This document shows, in pieces, positions 1-7,047 of a stretch of DNA of 11,683 bases (within the stretch, counting starts at the first letter, position 1; every line of letters starts with the position of its first letter). Position numbers and translations under genes: made by a program. The stretch spans positions 1 through 11,683 of the IMG/VR virus record IMGVR_UViG_2663762839_000001; one strand, 5' to 3'. Source of the DNA: a virus (lineage: Duplodnaviria; Heunggongvirae; Uroviricota; Caudoviricetes). The notes below the pieces were generated by a model. It saw only the letters and a list, made by a program, of their open reading frames with translations. It did not search any database and was not told the DNA's origin.

Positions 1-80
1 CCCCCATATCTTTTTCCGCCCCTGAAATTTGGTTGTTATTCATACAGCATATCAGGCGGTAACGCTCTCCCTTTAACCCA

Positions 81-112
81 CTTATTGTATGATAGTGCTA
101 TCCCACAATAAG
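81..112 (+). promoter_or_regulatory. Putative operator/promoter: perfect 8-bp inverted repeat CTTATTGT (81-88) / ACAATAAG (105-112) with a TATGAT -10-like hexamer (88-93) between the arms, upstream of CDS 126..485
   Basis: Inverted repeat and hexamer read directly from sequence; AGGAAT Shine-Dalgarno-like at 111-116, 9 nt before ATG 126. No -35 element is convincing. Confidence 0.35.
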
Positions 113-125
113 GAATCAGCCAGCC

Positions 126-485
126 ATGAGAATGACCAGCCGCAAAAAAGAGATACTTAGCTACTTTGAACCGGATAACCTCGAATGGGTGACTGGTGAG
201 ATTGGTGCGCCGCCGTTCGATGTGTCGGGTGTGGCCTACCTGCTTCATGGCATGGTGTCGTTCGATAAGCGTCACCAGCTCGAATCAACCCGGCGCACAC
301 TGGAAAGCATGGTTGCTGGTGGACTGCTTGAGCGGGTGACAGTGTATGAATCGCGCCAGATACGGCGCGGCGGTGAGACTAACGCAACGGTCGTGCGTTA
401 CGGTTTACCCGGTCATTGTGCTGTTATGCGCGATACTGGCGGCGCTGATAACGCAATATCAGGTGAATACATGCGGGTCAGTTAA
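126..485 (+). CDS. Hypothetical protein, 119 aa, possible small DNA-binding protein
   Basis: ATG start preceded by AGGAAT; uninterrupted ORF with E. coli-like codon usage; TAA stop at 483-485. Its 3' end overlaps the convergent minus-strand gene by 8 nt. No family recognised. Confidence 0.55.
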   Translation: MRMTSRKKEILSYFEPDNLEWVTGEIGAPPFDVSGVAYLLHGMVSFDKRHQLESTRRTLESMVAGGLLERVTVYESRQIRRGGETNATVVRYGLPGHCAVMRDTGGADNAISGEYMRVS

Positions 486-1020
486 TAGCCTGCAATCTGT
501 CGTTGATGCGGCTCAGGTCGTAAACCCGGCGTTCAATATCCAGCATCAGGAAATTGTGGATCTCGGCCTGCTCAGGATTATCAGACTCTCTGGCCTGTAA
601 TAGCAATTCATTGTAACCATGCAAGCCGCCTGAGTTTTCCGCCGGGGTGGTGCCTTTCCCACGCAGGCAGCTAATGGGCTGATTACTCGTATCGTGTGTT
701 TGCTTCTCCAGCACAATGACGCAATCCCACCAGTCGCCAAAGTCATACGTGTAAACCAGCTTGTCACCCTCATTCTGGAGCGCCGCCCATAGTGGCGTGA
801 TTGCCGCGTTACCCATGCTTTCATCCTCACCCCATACGCGATACTCGCTACCTGGATCACCTTTACGCCCTTTCTCGAACATATACAGGTGTTCGTCATT
901 CCAGCCAAAAGCTAACTGGATCACGGCATGAAGTTTACTAAAGGGGATTTGCTCTGGAACCAGCACACGCCGCCATATAGGTGGTTTGCTGTCTCGGATG
1001 GTTATCTTTAGCTGGTACAT
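478..1020 (-). CDS. PRiA4b ORF-3-like family protein, 180 aa
   Basis: ATG at 1020-1018 with AGGAT 5 nt upstream. Translation contains YTYDFGDWWDCVIVLEK, which I recall as the signature of the plasmid pRiA4b ORF-3-like family (PF07929). Recollection only, not a search result. Confidence 0.6.
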   Translation of the reverse strand: MYQLKITIRDSKPPIWRRVLVPEQIPFSKLHAVIQLAFGWNDEHLYMFEKGRKGDPGSEYRVWGEDESMGNAAITPLWAALQNEGDKLVYTYDFGDWWDCVIVLEKQTHDTSNQPISCLRGKGTTPAENSGGLHGYNELLLQARESDNPEQAEIHNFLMLDIERRVYDLSRINDRLQAIN

Positions 1021-1140
1021 GCAAATCCTGAATAAATGCGAATCGGAAGGATAACGATACTGACGTACTCACAATTCTGTAAAGGTGAATAAAGGAAATT
1101 TGCTTAATACGCATAAGTTACATGTGGAATAATCCCATAT

Positions 1141-1326
1141 CTACCTGCGCGGCGCTGGCTTCTTCCACTGGTAGGCAGGTGCTCGCATCATTTCGCGGAA
1201 CCTGTCGCGCCGGGCTATATCGGCATTAACTGAGCGTTCTATCTCCCGTTGATCTGCCTGTGTAAGCTGGTGGCCTCCGTGCTCAAGTTTGGCGATGGTC
1301 AATAAGGCTATTTCGCGTGGTGTCAT
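1141..1326 (-). CDS. Small hypothetical protein, 61 aa, basic C-terminus
   Basis: ATG at 1326-1324 with AGAGGG Shine-Dalgarno upstream; uninterrupted ORF; basic tail KKPAPRR. Function unknown. Confidence 0.5.
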   Translation of the reverse strand: MTPREIALLTIAKLEHGGHQLTQADQREIERSVNADIARRDRFREMMRAPAYQWKKPAPRR

Positions 1327-1604
1327 ACGTCATACCCTCTGGAAGGATGAAACACGCCCGGATTAAATTTCATTTTTCGCGGGTATGAAAAAACGATGGG
1401 GCGGGCAGTCCCGGACAGTCAGGGCTGTAGAGATTTGACTACCCCCTCCCGGTGATAGTTTATTGCTTGATGTGGACGGCTTGCTATATTGGCGGCGAAT
1501 GCAAATTGTCGCAGAAGTCTATCCCGTTCTATGACGCCCTGTGTGGTTGTGGTGCGAATCGCCCGCGTCACGCCGTTGATTTTAGGCTGCGCTCGGAACG
1601 AACA

Positions 1605-1955
1605 TCACGGCGCAGAAGTGTACCAACCGAATCTTGTTAACCCGGCATCGCAGCGCTCACGATTAAGCACACGTGGCGGGTTTTCTCTGGTCATCAACTC
1701 AAGCAAGGCATTGCCTCCCTGCATCTCCAGTCGGTATTGCCTATCGGTAGTGGTAATGGCATCCGGCAATAACTTTATGGCGGCCTGGCTAAAGTCTCGC
1801 GGTGCGCCGTAAAATTGCGCATCAACAATATGAACCACATCGCCGTTAATCGTTGTCCGATAACGGTCTGGCTGTATGGTAAAGCCCCCACAATGGATAG
1901 CAGATAGTGCCGGTGCCGATGAGATCAGGACGGCTGCCAGAATGTATGGCTTCAT
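1605..1955 (-). CDS. Exported (periplasmic) hypothetical protein, 116 aa, N-terminal signal peptide
   Basis: N-terminus MKPYILAAVLISSAPALSA has a hydrophobic core and an AxA-type cleavage site; two Cys residues in the mature part. Its ATG overlaps the stop of the upstream metallopeptidase gene (ATGA at 1952-1955). Confidence 0.65.
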   Translation of the reverse strand: MKPYILAAVLISSAPALSAIHCGGFTIQPDRYRTTINGDVVHIVDAQFYGAPRDFSQAAIKLLPDAITTTDRQYRLEMQGGNALLELMTRENPPRVLNRERCDAGLTRFGWYTSAP

Positions 1956-2596
1956 TCTTCACCCACCAATTCATCCAGTTCAGCCAGCGTCATAGGCTTT
2001 GGTACAGGCTTGTCAATATCACCCATAATGCGCTGGAAGTTTCTGGCAGGCATATGGTTACGGTTCTCCAGTATTTTCGCCAGCGCGATAACATCCCACC
2101 ATTTCAGGGCAATCAGCGCCTCAGCACGGGAAAGGGATATTCTCTGTATATCAGCATCCTCTCCACCAGCCACCCGGTATACCTCTGATAAATCACGAAC
2201 ATTTTTCATGTCTGCTTTCCCGGACGTTTCCATCAGTGCGTTAATATCATCCCCCGTATAGCGTGATTGCGCGACGATACCAGCCAGAGAGATAACCATA
2301 TCCCGGCATACCTGGTCTATCAGACGTAACCTGGTGTCATCATTCGAGAGGGTGTAAGACTTAACCTCAGCCACATTCCGTGGATAGTTGCCGTGCTGCC
2401 ATACCGCTACAGCTCCACATTCATCAACATCTCCGCTAAGGTAGGTTTTTGCCACTCGGTTATTACCCGATAACGCAATTTCTACCTCCTGTATGCCGAA
2501 AAACCATGCGGCTATCGCATGACCTGCTTCATGTATTGCAAGATGTCTGGGCCAGCGATAGCTGCCGAACTCAATAATGATGGGTTGCGTACTCAT
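1952..2596 (-). CDS. Putative zinc metallopeptidase (HExxH; HEAGH motif near the N-terminus), about 214 aa
   Basis: HEAGHAIAAW motif read from the translation. Start placed at ATG 2596-2594 with GAGGGAAG Shine-Dalgarno upstream, which avoids overlapping the ssb stop; the ORF track's longer version starts at 2653. No signal peptide. Confidence 0.6.
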   Translation of the reverse strand: MSTQPIIIEFGSYRWPRHLAIHEAGHAIAAWFFGIQEVEIALSGNNRVAKTYLSGDVDECGAVAVWQHGNYPRNVAEVKSYTLSNDDTRLRLIDQVCRDMVISLAGIVAQSRYTGDDINALMETSGKADMKNVRDLSEVYRVAGGEDADIQRISLSRAEALIALKWWDVIALAKILENRNHMPARNFQRIMGDIDKPVPKPMTLAELDELVGEE

Positions 2597-2606
2597 ATCT
2601 TCCCTC

Positions 2607-3068
2607 TCAGAATGGCGTTTCATCGTCGAATGGTGGGCGTTGGTCAAAATCATCAGGGGTATTATATAACTCCCATCCCGGCGCGGATTGTGTTGTGTGG
2701 CCCCTGCTGGCTCCGCTTGCTTTGACTGATTCGGCCCGCTTCCCGCCGGGGCGTACCGTTCTGGCGCTGATCACGCTGTCGGCTACTACCTGATAACCTT
2801 GCTGTGTACCGCCATCCTTGCCCGTCCACTGATTGATCTGCATCGCTCCGGCAACACTGACTAAATCGCCTTTAACGTGTCCTGCCAGTGCGTCGGCCTG
2901 TTTGCCGAATGCCACCACGCCCAGCCAGAAAGTAACCTCTCCGCCCTCTGCTGCATGGCAGGGCAGTGCCACCGCTAACCGTCCCATTGCCATGCTTGTA
3001 CCGTTTGCTGTGGTACGGGTCTGGGGATCTGCCACCAGCCGCCCGTATGCTGAAATTTGTGCTGTCAT
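2607..3068 (-). CDS. ssb: Single-stranded DNA-binding protein (SSB), 153 aa
   Basis: OB-fold SSB pattern (LVADPQTRTT..NG..MAMGRLAV...FWLGVVAFGKQAD...GDLVSVAGAMQINQWTGKDGG) and acidic C-terminal tip ending DDETPF, comparable to E. coli SSB DDDIPF. GAGGAA Shine-Dalgarno; ATGA overlap with the upstream gene at 3065-3068. Confidence 0.85.
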   Translation of the reverse strand: MTAQISAYGRLVADPQTRTTANGTSMAMGRLAVALPCHAAEGGEVTFWLGVVAFGKQADALAGHVKGDLVSVAGAMQINQWTGKDGGTQQGYQVVADSVISARTVRPGGKRAESVKASGASRGHTTQSAPGWELYNTPDDFDQRPPFDDETPF

Positions 3069-3367
3069 AGATATTTCCTCATGTAGTCACTACCTCCGGG
3101 GATAATTTTCATTTCTTCCCTTAAAGGCCACTGCTCCGCCATTGCTGCGGTCGAGTGATTCCCGTCATCACGTCCGGCCTGTGCTGCCGTCCAGTGTGTT
3201 GCATATTCTGTAAATCCAATTTCTGCTGGCTGCCTCATCCAGTGGGCGATCATCCTCAAGGTCATTTGCAGGCTTTGGGTGTCGCCCTGTAATGCGCGTT
3301 TGTCAGTAAACCCCTTCAATGCTTCACGCTCCTGATAGGTCATTTTCTGGCTGGTTTCTGTATTCAT
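3065..3367 (-). CDS. Hypothetical protein, 100 aa, first gene of the ssb operon
   Basis: ATG at 3367-3365 with AAGGTGG upstream; uninterrupted ORF; stop overlaps the ssb start. No recognisable family. Confidence 0.5.
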   Translation of the reverse strand: MNTETSQKMTYQEREALKGFTDKRALQGDTQSLQMTLRMIAHWMRQPAEIGFTEYATHWTAAQAGRDDGNHSTAAMAEQWPLREEMKIIPGGSDYMRKYL

Positions 3368-3420
3368 TGCCCACCTTCGTTATAAGCTACCCCCCCCATA
3401 GAATCTTTTTGGGGGTGTAA

Positions 3421-3582
3421 TATCCCTACCAATCCCTACTAACTGTCTCAGGCCACGAATGGCAAGGCTTTCAGACTGGTAGGCATTCAATTTTGTTGCC
3501 CTACATAACCCTACTTATCCCTACTAAATCACTTCAACGGCATTTTGCTGCCTGTTTTATTTGGTAGGGATATGTAGGGATA
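3421..3582. repeat. Iteron cluster: seven copies of the core CCCTAC (TATCCCTAC in the best copies), five direct and two inverted, phased at 10 bp; candidate operator array or replication origin
   Basis: Direct cores at 3424-3429, 3434-3439, 3499-3504, 3509-3514, 3519-3524; inverted GTAGGG at 3564-3569 and 3574-3579. Within each group the spacing is exactly 10 bp. CTTATCCCTAC (3514-3524) and GTAGGGATAAG (3574-3584) form an 11-bp perfect inverted repeat. Confidence 0.6.
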
Positions 3583-4142
3583 AGTGCCGCCGTAAAAGTT
3601 TCAATCACATCACTCTGCCCGCTCTCCACACCGTAAGCACGGGGCATGAACTCCTCAGCCTTCTCGTTATAGCCAACGTTGGTCTGCGCTCTGCCGTTAA
3701 TGCTTCTCGTCAGGTAGCTGGCTCGGTACTCTTTTGCTGCTGATTTTATGGCGCGTGAAAACTTATTGACGGAAAGCGGTTTACCCAAACCGTGATACTC
3801 CATAAACGCCAGATAAAGATGATAAAGATATGTCCTCGGCTCTGGCTGGCCTGCCCATGTACCTCCGCCCATCATCATGCCTTTGGGTTCGTTCATGAAA
3901 AAAAGCGCCGCACACATATCGACAACCGGATCCGTGCCGCGTTTAACCTCTAGCGCCTCCTGCGAATCGCGCTGCTCTAGTAATAGTGCTTTTGCTTTGT
4001 TCTGGTCGGCAAAGGTGGTTAGCAGGTGGCGGATAATCACCGGGATTTCTCGCCTGATTTTTGCTGTTAAATCCGGGTCTTTGTCTGCGTCTGATACCGG
4101 GTTATTAAACGGGAATACCCGTAGCGTGACATTGTCGTTCAT
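3534..4142 (-). CDS. P4-family primase/helicase C-terminal-region-like protein, 202 aa; either a stand-alone domain protein or a 5'-truncated remnant
   Basis: Motifs LRVFPF..DPDLTAKIRREIPVIIRHLL and RTYLYHLYLAFMEYHGLGKPLSVNKFSRAI resemble, from memory, the conserved C-terminal region of phage/plasmid P4-type primases. ATG overlaps the upstream stop (ATGA at 4139-4142) with GAAGGTG upstream. The 3' end runs through two inverted iteron copies. Confidence 0.45.
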   Translation of the reverse strand: MNDNVTLRVFPFNNPVSDADKDPDLTAKIRREIPVIIRHLLTTFADQNKAKALLLEQRDSQEALEVKRGTDPVVDMCAALFFMNEPKGMMMGGGTWAGQPEPRTYLYHLYLAFMEYHGLGKPLSVNKFSRAIKSAAKEYRASYLTRSINGRAQTNVGYNEKAEEFMPRAYGVESGQSDVIETFTAALIPTYPYQIKQAAKCR

Positions 4143-5263
4143 TGCACTGGCACCTTCAGAGGGATCACCGGCACAAAGCCGGGATGCGTAATGGCATTAC
4201 GCCGGATAATGTCCGCGTCACGCGCCGCGTTATCAAACCAGGTCGCCGCCAGCACCAGCGCGGGTAAAACCTCATCCGGTGTGCGCTGAATGATCCGTGC
4301 AGACTGTTCAAGGCGCGTGTTGATATCCGCATTCAGATCTGCTTTCACCCGGCGCAGCGCCAGAAACAGCGCATCGCTGGTTGTACGGGACAACTCCTTA
4401 TCAATTGCCGTATTCAGTGTGTCGCGAATGTCAGTCAGTTCTTCCCACGTCGGCAGGTCAACCGTGTTTTTCACCGCCGGTGCATTGTTCAGTGCCGGAT
4501 GCGTGACGGAAGGCCAGCAAGTGCTCTGCGCAGGTGTTGTTGCCTGCCCCACTGCGGCATTCTGCATCACCGCGGAAGTTGTTAGCGCAGGCACCCGCAT
4601 CCCGGGAGGCGCATCCTTAAACGAGACCGTAATCTCGCCTTCAGCCTTCTTCGGCGCAGCCTGAACTATCTGATACGGATTGTATCCCTGAGCAGAAACG
4701 CCTGTACCGTACGCCCCATAGCCACCGCCCCCCCACTGAGTCGCATTGGCTGCAACCACCGTGTCGCTGGCACCATCAGTAAACCATTCAATAATCGGCT
4801 TCAGCTTGTCCCACATATCCTGAAACCACTTAACAACCGGCCCCCAGTTATTGATCACCATCCCCAGCGGCGACCAGGCAAAAACTTTCTTAAGGAGTTC
4901 CCAGCCAGCCTCAAAATAAGGACCAATGGTTTCCCAGAGTTTCTTAAAATAAGGTCCGACAACATCCCAGTTAGTGATAATTAATCCCGCAGCCAGGGCT
5001 ATCGCCGTCGCAATCATGCCAATCGGCGTCATCGACATGATCCTGCTGACAATACTGATGGCACCGCCAACGCCCATCAATCCCAGTTTCAGAATCGCAA
5101 GACCGGCAGCAAGCCCGACGACGCCGCGAATAACCCGGGGATTTTCATCCGCAAACTTCGTGAATTTTTCCCCCAACTCCCCCAGCCATTGCGTGATATT
5201 TTTGGCGTCACCAGAAAATGCGCCGCCAATAGCCGCAAGGCCGTTAGTTGCGGTCCCCGTCAT
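4139..5263 (-). CDS. Tail tape-measure-like protein (paralog or fragment), 374 aa
   Basis: Hydrophobic, Trp-rich segments (MTPIGMIATAIALAAGLIITNWD, WELLKKVFAWSPLGMVINNWGPVVKWFQDMW) parallel the central region of the 7937..9925 tape measure (MSPVGLITALAAGIALLWEDY). Start sits about 40 nt downstream of an intrinsic terminator; Shine-Dalgarno spacing is short. Confidence 0.5.
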   Translation of the reverse strand: MTGTATNGLAAIGGAFSGDAKNITQWLGELGEKFTKFADENPRVIRGVVGLAAGLAILKLGLMGVGGAISIVSRIMSMTPIGMIATAIALAAGLIITNWDVVGPYFKKLWETIGPYFEAGWELLKKVFAWSPLGMVINNWGPVVKWFQDMWDKLKPIIEWFTDGASDTVVAANATQWGGGGYGAYGTGVSAQGYNPYQIVQAAPKKAEGEITVSFKDAPPGMRVPALTTSAVMQNAAVGQATTPAQSTCWPSVTHPALNNAPAVKNTVDLPTWEELTDIRDTLNTAIDKELSRTTSDALFLALRRVKADLNADINTRLEQSARIIQRTPDEVLPALVLAATWFDNAARDADIIRRNAITHPGFVPVIPLKVPVQ

Positions 5264-5304
5264 TGCCTCTGGTCAGATACTGCCATTTAGTAGGCTCCAG
5301 AAAG

Positions 5305-5329
5305 CAAAAAACCCGCCGGGTGGCGGGTT
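5305..5329 (-). terminator. Rho-independent terminator (minus strand) downstream of the 79-aa membrane protein gene
   Basis: Minus-strand RNA reads AACCCGCC-ACCC-GGCGGGTT followed by TTTTGCTTT: an 8-bp GC-rich stem, 4-nt loop and U-tract, read directly from sequence. Confidence 0.7.
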
Positions 5330-5345
5330 CATTATTGAAGTTTCA

Positions 5346-5585
5346 TTACTGCTTGTTTGCTTCTAACGCTTCAGCTATTCGGCGAAGATACTCATTGTTT
5401 TTAAATGAAACCATGATGCACTCAAAGAATATTCGGCAAAATACAGCACATAACAAAAGCACTAAAGCGCCAGCAGCCTTCCCATTAACAAACGTTATAA
5501 TGGCGGCAACAACCAGAAGTAACATTGTGATGCCATACAGAACGTTGATGATTTTTGGAGTTATTAATTTATCAAATCCGAACAT
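5346..5585 (-). CDS. Small integral membrane protein, 79 aa, two predicted TM helices (moron gene)
   Basis: ATG with AAGGAA upstream; two hydrophobic stretches (IINVLYGITMLLLVVAAIITFV and AAGALVLLLCAVFCRIFFECIMVSF); about 38% GC by hand count over 5341-5590 versus about 55% in a flanking tail gene; own -10 element and terminator. N-terminal FDKLITPKIINVLY is tentatively reminiscent of DUF4282-type small membrane proteins. Confidence 0.65.
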   Translation of the reverse strand: MFGFDKLITPKIINVLYGITMLLLVVAAIITFVNGKAAGALVLLLCAVFCRIFFECIMVSFKNNEYLRRIAEALEANKQ

Positions 5586-5614
5586 GCGACAAATTCCTTA
5601 TCGTGAAAGTAGAA

Positions 5615-5650
5615 GTATCACATTATAATTACGAGTGATTAATCAACAAT
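5615..5650 (-). promoter_or_regulatory. Putative sigma70 promoter for the 79-aa membrane protein gene
   Basis: Minus-strand perfect TATAAT (plus 5627-5622) with a TTGTTG -35-like hexamer (5649-5644) 16 nt upstream; sits at the 3' end of the upstream gene and the intergenic spacer. Confidence 0.4.
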
Positions 5651-5980
5651 CTTTTTGCATGGAAAGGAACCGATGATTTTCGGCGCATCCATGCTGTTCT
5701 GCAGCAGTTGGACATTCAGGAATCGCGTTTCGGTACCAGGGCGACGAATGTATTCAAAGCCGTAGTTGTTACCGTCTTTGGCAGGCATAAGCCCCATGTC
5801 TACTTTCAAACCATTGGTACCCAGTTCGGTGATTTTTTGAGAGGTAACTTTTTCACCGTTGATTGTCGATAACTCGCCCTGGTTTGCAACCATAGTGTAG
5901 CCACCGCATTTAACCGTGAAGCCATCCGCCCACGCGCTGCACGCAGAAAAGACAGCTAACAGAAAAATAATACCCCTCAT
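5639..5980 (-). CDS. Exported protein, 113 aa, signal peptide with possible lipobox (FSAC) or signal peptidase I site (AWA-D)
   Basis: N-terminus MRGIIFLLAVFSACSAWADG; two further Cys (VKCGG, FPCKK). ATG with AAGGGGA upstream, only 3 nt after the stop of the 353-aa tail gene. Confidence 0.65.
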   Translation of the reverse strand: MRGIIFLLAVFSACSAWADGFTVKCGGYTMVANQGELSTINGEKVTSQKITELGTNGLKVDMGLMPAKDGNNYGFEYIRRPGTETRFLNVQLLQNSMDAPKIIGSFPCKKIVD

Positions 5981-5983
5981 TGC

Positions 5984-7045
5984 TCATCCCCTTTGCAAAG
6001 CCGATTGCGTATACAGATCCGCCGCGCCACGCGCTTCGCACATCATATCCATGTACCACGCCTGGCCCCTTGTATCGCCAGTGTACATAATCCCGCGCAC
6101 AATATAAACGCCATCTGTTGCGATGCTGGCAGGTTGTGCTGTTGTGCCGCTGAGCGTGATATTACCGTCCGTGTTCTGGTCGGTGATCTTCCCACCAGCC
6201 ATCGCAATATCGTTGTTCGACAACGCGGTGCGATATACGGAAGCCTGATCCAGTTGAATGAGCCCATTAACCCGGATGTTCGGATTAATAAGCGCGCGGA
6301 CGTTTACGCCGTTGCCGATAGTCTGCTGCGGCATGCCGATAAGCCCGGTGGCGCTGTTGAGCACAATCGCTTCATGAACATATTCGTTATTCGCCACCAT
6401 CTGGCGTTGACCGTCCACAAATTGCCATGTTGCGCCACATTGTCCGGCCACGTTATCCATAAGATGCCGTGTCATGCCGAACAGCACCCGCCCTCGAGGG
6501 TATACGGTAGCAGGCATTTCAGGCGTCAGTCCTTCGGTCGCGCCTTTGGCCTCAAAGTCTTTCATCAGCGCACGGTTCACATCAGCGACCGTGTAACCGG
6601 CAGCCAGCGTCTGTGAGGTTATACTGGTGGCAAATGCCAGATCCGTATCTGCTGCCTGAATCAGGACATAGGAATCAATAGGGCTGTCTTTTCCTGTGAC
6701 CGAGTAGCGAATTTCTCCGCTGAAAATCAGCCCGTAGTTGCGGCCATCACTCTGGCCCACATCTGCCGCGTCGACTTCGCGCACGGTCCCGACGTCGCTT
6801 GCCGCCACCTCCGGCGCGATACCGTCGTAACCGGCAATCAGCCGCACTTTCGAAAATTCCTTCCCGGTGATTCGGTTCACAGTATCTGCCAAGAGGTTAT
6901 AAATTTTGATAGTCCCTACCCGGGACGCGCTGCTGATGTTGAACCAGTCGATCGTAAAGGTGACTTTGAAATCACTTAGCCCAATTCCCTGACCGTTCCC
7001 GTCCACAAGCTGCACCTCTAAATGTCTCATCCAGTTCTGTGACAT
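5984..7045 (-). CDS. Phage tail-tip/baseplate-associated structural protein, 353 aa (family not assigned)
   Basis: Long ORF with GGAG Shine-Dalgarno, coupled (2-nt gap) to the upstream 100-aa gene, third gene after the tape measure; beta-rich, Gly/Asn/Thr-rich composition typical of tail proteins. Function inferred from position only. Confidence 0.55.
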   Translation of the reverse strand: MSQNWMRHLEVQLVDGNGQGIGLSDFKVTFTIDWFNISSASRVGTIKIYNLLADTVNRITGKEFSKVRLIAGYDGIAPEVAASDVGTVREVDAADVGQSDGRNYGLIFSGEIRYSVTGKDSPIDSYVLIQAADTDLAFATSITSQTLAAGYTVADVNRALMKDFEAKGATEGLTPEMPATVYPRGRVLFGMTRHLMDNVAGQCGATWQFVDGQRQMVANNEYVHEAIVLNSATGLIGMPQQTIGNGVNVRALINPNIRVNGLIQLDQASVYRTALSNNDIAMAGGKITDQNTDGNITLSGTTAQPASIATDGVYIVRGIMYTGDTRGQAWYMDMMCEARGAADLYTQSALQRG

Positions 7046-7047
7046 GC

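Follow-up and report, generated by a model that had tools for sequence, protein, structure and literature searches.

Two small accessory genes at the putative hub-spike junction of a decayed SEN34-like prophage

Do two small genes lying side by side in a phage baseplate operon form one unit, and what might their products do? The question is raised by positions 5,305 to 5,980 of a stretch of Caudoviricetes DNA (IMG/VR record IMGVR_UViG_2663762839_000001, positions 1 to 11,683), where genes of 113 and 79 codons follow one another. A preliminary description, made from the sequence alone, had taken them for a single two-gene moron, an exported protein or lipoprotein together with a membrane protein, active in superinfection exclusion or defence. 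We read the region instead as the junction between the hub and spike genes of a decayed SEN34-like prophage (lambdoid-regulated, contractile-tailed) that holds two independent accessory genes, and give this reading a probability of roughly one half; in the anatomy of the locus and in the evolutionary reading of both genes we place high confidence. The whole 11,683-nt stretch is called the window, all coordinates are window positions unless a locus is named, and the relevant genes are all on the minus strand. The features of the junction are:

5984-7045 (-): baseplate hub gene, 353 aa (phrog_196 'baseplate hub' at 5.9e-87; weak Pfam match to E217_GP41)
5639-5980 (-): gene of the putatively exported 113-aa protein (phrog_3443 at 1e-47)
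5622-5649 (-): candidate sigma-70 promoter of the 79-aa gene, read from the sequence
5594-5599 (-): ribosome-binding site AAGGAA, 8 nt 5′ of the DUF4282 start codon, read from the sequence
5346-5585 (-): 79-aa DUF4282 gene (Pfam PF14110 at 1.2e-10; phrog_12129 at 8e-48)
5299-5330 (-): intrinsic terminator, stem-loop 5330-5309 and then a T-rich tail (terminator scan and folding)
5268-5286 (-): stub of the spike gene, ATG (5286-5284) plus 16 nt, delimited by the endpoint of homology

Both open reading frames (ORFs) exist as described, and the 113-aa gene does start (5980) 3 nt after the stop codon (5984-5986) of the 353-aa tail gene, here identified as the hub gene. Neither product had been assigned to a nameable family; this no longer holds, as the 79-aa protein matches DUF4282 and phrog_12129 and the 113-aa protein phrog_3443.

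The hub-spike junction and its cargo slot

By blastn, window positions 5268-10930 align at 97.9% identity with positions 12001-17661 of L001, an intact prophage of E. coli RM8082 whose gene order is that of Salmonella phage SEN34, which is temperate, has a contractile tail and is regulated in the manner of lambda (PMC5261728). With intact SEN34-like prophages the window is homologous as far as 5268, 19 nt inside the spike gene, and the matches in E. coli genomes end at this same base (query position 69). The prophage being truncated just after the slot that holds the 79-aa gene, both genes persist at the edge of the remnant. They had been placed between tail-tip genes and a tape-measure-like gene. 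This is right on the hub side, but the ORF downstream is a foreign fragment; in intact relatives it is the gene of the membrane-puncturing spike that comes after the 79-aa ORF.

The residence of the 113-aa gene was surveyed in 44 hub-encoding loci from different species, in 38 of which the spike gene was also found. It follows the hub gene in about 32 of these 38; YP3, SEN34, Mulock and E. coli prophages all have it directly 3′ of the hub. In six of the 32, which are compact loci from Serratia, Rahnella, Pantoea and Acerihabitans, hub, 113-aa gene and spike are spaced by about 10 nt, and cargo and terminator are both missing. The divergence of the 113-aa gene broadly parallels that of hub and spike, while the genes next to it belong to at least 14 other cargo types or are missing altogether. 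A consensus scan detected no promoter for it, and it is without a terminator of its own. To judge from its distribution, the 113-aa gene is an old, conserved resident of the junction and not a moron. The moron layout that had been proposed for the pair is thus kept for the 79-aa gene and given up for this conserved neighbour of the hub.

From the 113-aa gene's stop codon as far as a conserved terminator element, the sequence diverges fully from locus to locus. The boundary element reads ACCCGC-loop-GCGGG-T(5-7), and after it come GGAG as ribosome-binding site and the ATG of the spike gene; the element is common to more than 30 loci across genera, with variable loops, unrelated cargo, and compensatory stem changes in Mulock and in Hafnia phage yong1. 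In the window (5330-5309, minus strand) it forms a stem of 9 bp, six of them GC pairs, followed by a T-run, with a folding energy of -16.4 kcal/mol (z = -2.98). It is the canonical terminator that the preliminary description saw, but since prophages with unrelated cargo share it, it is a backbone element serving whatever the slot carries and not specific to the DUF4282 gene.

Where only the terminator is present the divergent part measures 58 nt, and at its longest about 1800 nt; its GC content is 0.35-0.46 vs 0.48-0.58 in hub genes. Sister prophages hold other cargo there, or nothing. The 58 cargo proteins cluster into 33 families. Among these are a YafO toxin, with a partner encoded upstream of it, a T5orf172 protein, a protease resembling ClpP, a TPR protein whose companion is weakly HEPN-like, an exported tRNA_anti-like protein and a weakly PycTM-like membrane protein, plus many unknowns. 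On the evidence of these alignments, the slot between the 113-aa gene and the terminator is a cargo hotspot. We also observed that in strain IAI1 (L014, NC_011741.1, 2904-3610, minus strand) the 770-nt gap from the 113-aa homologue to the spike gene, which is unannotated in RefSeq, encodes a 176-aa membrane-protein ORF (phrog_18554 at 5e-60; weak PycTM-like PADLOC match) and a 59-aa ORF.

The DUF4282 gene has a different history. Its region is present in 83 complete E. coli genomes vs 304, of the 5426 searched, that carry the hub gene. An Erwinia prophage with a hub of only 58% identity has it in this slot too, and three other phage backbones carry it without the 113-aa gene. In Klebsiella siphovirus-type prophages, as in Edwardsiella phage GF-2, close homologues come directly 3′ of the tape-measure gene, and one follows the lysis genes in a Pantoea lambdoid prophage and in the decayed remnants of that prophage. 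In the Klebsiella, Edwardsiella and Pantoea backbones the gene is AT-rich and its own strong terminator follows it; over the four backbones its GC content is 38-42% vs 45-56% in the flanks. A gene that is present or absent between homologous neighbours, with distinct GC and a terminator directly downstream, has the marks of a moron, and by these the 79-aa DUF4282 gene is a true moron in the cargo slot. The comparison of related prophages at this exact position, which the preliminary description had recommended for the cassette as a whole, came out differently for its two halves: the 79-aa gene is present in some prophages and absent from others, and the 113-aa gene is there even where the slot is empty. 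All contexts in which close relatives of the two proteins were found are prophages or prophage remnants. Two of the decayed Pantoea ananatis remnants (L006 and L007, 6001-6237) contain the DUF4282 gene with a convergent 122-aa ORF, and one of them is flanked by IS3-type transposases; this resembles the retention at a remnant's edge seen in the window.

Could the two genes nevertheless be one moron cassette, a lipoprotein and a membrane protein that act together, in the manner of Cor or Llp, to exclude phages or block their receptors? They are adjacent and on the same strand, their products both appear to be envelope-targeted, and they co-occur in the distant Erwinia prophage. Against this, their distributions are independent: the 113-aa gene stands beside the many other cargo types or none, and DUF4282 is found without it in Klebsiella, Pantoea and Edwardsiella phages. 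The GC contents differ as well (46.8% vs 37.5%, with 54.3% in the hub gene), and the lipobox cysteine is not conserved (see below). We therefore consider a joint cassette very improbable, and speak of two independent accessory genes.

The 113-aa protein and the post-hub position

We found 394 proteins homologous to the 113-aa protein, all confined to Enterobacterales prophages, some of them named "STY1065/STY2022 family phage-derived protein" in RefSeq. An exhaustive search of 1.84 billion representatives yielded only 40 clusters of homologues at 50% identity. Matches of that profile search to giant repeat proteins (P0212, P0230, P0235, P0246 and P0247) were treated as spurious low-complexity hits; the three of them that were included in a Pfam scan (P0230, P0246 and P0247) carry Ig-like, Listeria-Bacteroides repeat or C1q domains. 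In a further protein, the 292-aa lipoprotein P0232, the C-terminal 95 residues form a barrel domain of the 113-aa type.

The protein has a single hydrophobic segment, at its N-terminus. The signal peptide comprises residues 1-19 (5924-5980), and the mature part of 94 aa is encoded by 5642-5923. In two alignments of homologues spanning 25-97% identity the features of a signal peptide are maintained while its sequence drifts; it ends in A-x-A, as type-I signal peptides do, most homologues reading SFGA-x-A before the mature N-terminus. Cys25 and Cys108 are invariant. The cysteine of the supposed lipobox, Cys14, belongs to a single allele, that of E. coli/YP3, where Phe stands at position -3. Because of the A-x-A ending, the drifting signal sequence, the non-conserved Cys14 and the invariant Cys25 and Cys108, we infer that the protein is probably exported by Sec, cleaved by signal peptidase I and joined by a disulfide in the periplasm. 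Of the earlier proposal of a signal peptide with a possible lipobox, the first half is thus retained; the lipoprotein reading was rejected, Cys14 being restricted to one allele, and with it goes the analogy to the lipoproteins Cor and Llp. In SEN34 (L003, 3501-3842), GenBank's SEN34_20 is a 78-aa product starting at 3609, while the full 113-aa ORF with signal peptide begins at 3501, 3 nt after the hub gene.

The C-terminal two-thirds of the protein are very strongly conserved. The N-terminal hairpin is mosaic, as the IAI1 allele shows, and many E. coli alleles match in their 3′ half only. An AlphaFold2 model (pLDDT 90.2, pTM 0.78) forms an 8-stranded up-and-down beta-barrel resembling the avidin/calycin-like fold, so that the mature protein is predicted with confidence to be an 8-stranded barrel with an invariant cysteine pair. 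A first model (pLDDT 69) had given a lead to lysozyme inhibitors (PliC/PhiA). [quoted passage not shown] As the gene is present also where the tape-measure protein is without a hydrolase-like domain, the idea of an inhibitor of the phage's own type of tail hydrolase is unsupported.

The position after the hub has been filled in more than one way. In APEC37, L022, L033 and Hafnia phage yong1 an unrelated secreted family of 154-182 aa replaces the 113-aa gene (2243-2770 in L012, APEC37; 3572-4032 in L060, yong1). The last codons of the 113-aa gene remain as a remnant in APEC37 (...SMDAPKIIGSFPCKKVSG), L022 and yong1, and none were detected in L033. In yong1 the annotated coding sequence of the replacement begins at an internal Met and misses the signal peptide. 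A third family, of lipoproteins with an LSGC lipobox, occupies the position in Serratia/Rouxiella prophages (L031 6071-6811; L032 6068-7207). The 113-aa gene is absent from L032, L033 and L054, the last of which has nothing after the hub. Apart from the empty L054, the post-hub position always encodes an envelope-targeted protein, though not always the same one.

These replacements bear on whether the 113-aa protein is a baseplate component of the virion or of its assembly, for example a tip cap, cargo of the lumen, or an ejection protein whose N-terminal helix is hydrophobic. Its fixed place between hub and spike, the tight operon spacing, the divergence in step with both neighbours and the strong conservation of its C-terminal part would all suit such a role. 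However, a canonical signal peptide preserved in its features and not in its sequence, together with a cysteine pair suited to the periplasm, speaks against it, and so does the exchange for unrelated exported proteins in yong1 and in prophages whose hubs are 92-95% identical. Since other exported proteins stand in for it, also in an isolated phage (yong1), the 113-aa gene is not essential for virions. Searches of PHROG and Pfam families gave no structural match to the 113-aa protein, and homology to a structural tail component, which the preliminary description would have held against its proposal, was found for neither protein. A structural role thus appears unlikely, and signal peptide and replaceability together argue for an accessory envelope function.

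A parallel in position is offered by phage E217 (L059), where gp42 (9595-10128, 177 aa, without signal peptide) lies between the hub gp41 and the tail tip gp43. It is not one of the proteins built into the cryo-EM structures of E217 or Pa193 virions. E217 gp42 and Pa193 gp43 were considered as relatives of the 113-aa protein and rejected, their sequences being unrelated and without a signal peptide; the parallel is positional only.

We suggest that the 113-aa barrel is an envelope-acting accessory protein that would be made with the late tail genes and act in the envelope, not in the virion. It would most likely bind a component of the envelope or of an incoming phage. That its ligand is an incoming tail tip or a receptor is a guess by analogy, to which we give less credence than to the role proposed below for DUF4282.

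The DUF4282 protein and its possible role

The 79-aa protein scores 42.2 bits against PF14110 (gathering cut-off 27) over residues 2-71, and PF14110 is found in all 86 close homologues, of 87, for which a Pfam match was precomputed. Its only other Pfam match is a sub-threshold one to YbhQ. The two membrane segments ascribed to it correspond to hydrophobic peaks at residues 15-33 and 41-59. Hardly any variation is seen in the N-terminus M[F/I]GFDKLITPKI, in the C-terminal helix FKNNEYLRRIAE, or at R51 and E55 inside the second hydrophobic segment. The low GC content reported for the gene was confirmed (37.5% vs 54.3% in the hub gene and 53.2% in the tail module, or 53-54% in tail genes).

The promoter is less clear. 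A perfect TATAAT lies at 5627-5622 (-), as the preliminary description had noted, but the case for a promoter is weaker than stated there: the sole -35 element at a usable spacing is TTGTTG (5649-5644), with three of six consensus matches and a 16-nt spacer. With only TTGTTG as its -35, the site fails the standard consensus scan. It overlaps the final codons of the 113-aa gene. A promoter of the 79-aa gene at this site is plausible but not established.

From these elements the following scheme can be put together. A weak constitutive promoter (TTGTTG, 16 nt, TATAAT) would drive the DUF4282 gene in the lysogen; the terminator would halt this transcript ahead of the spike gene, and Q-type antiterminated late transcription would pass through it. 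The protein would be an inner-membrane hairpin with both of its conserved termini in the cytoplasm, and it may block entry of superinfecting genomes where the tape-measure protein or tail tip forms a channel, as HK97 gp15 or T4 Imm do. By this analogy an exclusion role for DUF4282 is possible, and we hold it tentatively.

Several results weigh against the picture drawn here of the two genes. The candidate promoter is below the threshold of the consensus scan and has no clear equivalent in the Erwinia copy. The readthrough step was assumed because SEN34 is lambdoid in character, its sole basis, and the membrane topology was derived from hydropathy and charge counts only. The 113-aa gene is without a promoter of its own, which makes a role in the lysogenic state doubtful, and its lack of co-variation with the hydrolase-like domain counts against that one specific target. 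Neither protein matched the defence models of PADLOC-DB v2 at E <= 0.01, profile searches of PDB sequences found no match, and a viral structure library gave none at E <= 0.001 (the best match above that cut-off was a Serratia phage Scapp "lipoprotein", E = 0.17). No homology links either protein to a known exclusion or defence protein, and within the literature searched there was none on either family (DUF4282/PF14110; STY1065/STY2022).

The same features of DUF4282 could belong to a protein that damages membranes, whether one akin to holins or antiholins, a small toxin or an effector of abortive infection. Two hydrophobic segments and a charged C-terminus resemble class II holins, the invariant R51 and E55 lie within the second of these segments, the Pantoea copy comes just after lysis genes, and sister slots hold toxin-like cargo (YafO and the weak PycTM-like match). 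The gene is a single one without a partner, however, and it is located in the tail module in three of four backbones. It has been kept in decayed remnants, both here and in Pantoea L006/L007, which fits a non-toxic product, and no holin or toxin family was matched, DUF4282 itself and sub-threshold YbhQ being the only Pfam matches. We regard a damaging function as unlikely.

Slightly less likely still is that one or both genes serve the physiology of the host, for instance in envelope stress, colonisation or the binding of a ligand by the barrel. An avidin/calycin-like barrel is typical of small-ligand binders, many morons have roles other than defence (PMC3594210), and Pfam lists DUF4282 as a domain of unknown function, with no hint of a phage role. 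On the other side stand the restriction of close relatives of both proteins to prophages or their remnants and the recurrent position by tail-tip or tape-measure genes.

A bolder version of the proposal, that of two accessory proteins acting on phage entry, would make the whole junction a two-tier envelope-defence locus, with exported binders after the hub and DUF4282 entry blockers in the slot. At least three unrelated exported families that interchange after the hub (the 113-aa barrel, the 154-182-aa secreted family and the lipoprotein) would then each be a periplasmic binder of a tail tip or receptor, and DUF4282 would be a new widespread family of entry blockers, recurring beside tape-measure genes because the channel is its target. 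This extension is doubtful, clearly more so than the exclusion role of DUF4282 by itself.

If true, the exclusion role would be the first function for DUF4282, that of a portable phage-entry blocker in at least four phage lineages of Enterobacterales, and the 113-aa barrel family would add a second uncharacterised phage protein that acts in the envelope. This tail module is carried by about 6% of complete E. coli genomes, most of which have the barrel gene at this position. Within the baseplate operon, the slot bounded by the terminator offers a precisely delimited place to mine for accessory and defence genes, and would serve as a landing pad for engineering.

The surrounding remnant and known systems

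Upstream and downstream of the junction the window contains the following:

10559-10900 (-): tail-tube gene, 5′-truncated (Pfam/PHROG annotation)
10103-10555 (-): tail assembly chaperone gene (Pfam/PHROG annotation)
7937-9946 (-): tape-measure gene with transglycosylase-like C-terminus (Pfam/PHROG annotation)
7350-7937 (-): Dit-like baseplate gene (Pfam/PHROG annotation)
7048-7350 (-): baseplate plug gene (Pfam/PHROG annotation)
4139-5263 (-): foreign 374-aa ORF, a fusion of tape-measure and DNA-circularization parts (PHROG matches)

The right end of the SEN34-like block, 10930, falls within the tail-tube gene, which lacks its 5′ end, and the window's right edge (11464-11670, minus strand) holds a C-terminal piece of an IS3-type transposase (rve_3/rve_2). 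To the left, the 374-aa ORF is foreign to the SEN34-like module. Its residues 1-222 match phrog_17727 and phrog_28 (tape measure), and residues 223-374 match phrog_17109 (DNA circularization, Mu N-like, C-terminal part), fused in frame. In intact E. coli prophages the two pieces cover 2914 bp vs 1154 bp here, about 1.76 kb being missing between them, and the same mosaic was absent from all 5426 complete E. coli genomes searched. Beyond this ORF lie a C-terminal fragment of a P4-type primase (Pox_D5; 3534-4142, minus strand), an SSB-family protein (2607-3068, minus strand) and a PRiA4_ORF3-family protein (E = 1.1e-42; 478-1020, minus strand). The left half of the window consists of remnants of another mobile element, and the tail module is a 5.7-kb remnant between other debris. 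NCBIfam, Rfam and tRNA scans of the region gave no matches.

In the left half a 116-aa ORF with a signal peptide (1605-1955, minus strand) overlaps by 4 nt the end of a 233-aa ORF (1952-2653, minus strand) that contains an HExxH-type motif, HEAGH; neither matched a Pfam, PHROG or PADLOC family. The first approximately 42 residues of the 116-aa ORF resemble the 113-aa protein (CGG[FY]T...TING; BLASTP E = 6e-4). It was considered as a paralogue and rejected, as the likeness does not extend past the signal peptide and first hairpin (hhalign 70%, 42 columns).

Morons, prophage hotspots and exclusion proteins are well known, so that current concepts are left unchanged by this locus. The closest parallel to the proposal for DUF4282 is the HK97 moron gp15 (Cumby et al. 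2012, summarised in PMC3594210), whose small inner-membrane product blocks DNA entry in a tail-dependent manner. The gp15 gene is an AT-rich insert of the tail operon, next to the tape-measure gene, with transcription signals of its own, and it is expressed from the prophage. DUF4282 resembles it in layout, its own promoter being a candidate, and in two other backbones DUF4282 also comes directly after the tape-measure gene. The two differ in that gp15 is of the YebO family, unrelated in sequence to DUF4282 (matched by PF14110 and sub-threshold YbhQ only), and in that DUF4282 has two hydrophobic segments and lies, in the window, between hub and spike and not by the tape-measure gene. T4 Imm is of similar size to the DUF4282 protein and has two membrane segments, though it comes from a lytic phage and is expressed early. 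P22 SieA (covered in PMC10883804) is an inner-membrane blocker of DNA injection. As is proposed for DUF4282, these small membrane proteins stop genome entry and leave the receptor untouched; no sequence similarity to DUF4282 was detected with Pfam, PHROG and PADLOC. Tab, a small moron protein of a late operon, acts on a tape-measure protein (PMC10884400).

For the 113-aa protein, a conceptual model is T4 Spackle, a periplasmic inhibitor of the tail-spike lysozyme (PMC7677548). Spackle too is a small periplasmic phage protein with a signal peptide that is aimed at the tail tip. It is helical and an early gene product, whereas the 113-aa protein is predicted to be an all-beta barrel, and its gene belongs to a late operon and shows no co-variation with the hydrolase-like domain of the tail. 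The receptor-blocking lipoproteins Cor (phi80/N15/T1) and Llp (T5) (PMC9586334) share with it a small size, an envelope address and a location near tail genes; in contrast to them, the 113-aa family as a whole are not lipoproteins, gave no match to these proteins in Pfam, PHROGs or NCBIfam, and have their genes next to hub and spike and not next to a receptor-binding protein gene.

The slot, finally, recalls the hotspots of accessory and antiviral genes in P2/P4 prophages and satellites (Rousset et al. 2022, cited in PMC10884400). Like them it has a fixed position between conserved phage genes and many alternative cargo sets, some with toxin- or defence-type domains. It differs from them in lying inside a baseplate operon, between the conserved gene of an exported protein and a conserved terminator with the spike gene, and in its cargo, which is mostly uncharacterised and often membrane-bound or exported. 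What stands out here is a cargo slot inside a baseplate operon, bounded by a conserved terminator, together with two uncharacterised protein families.

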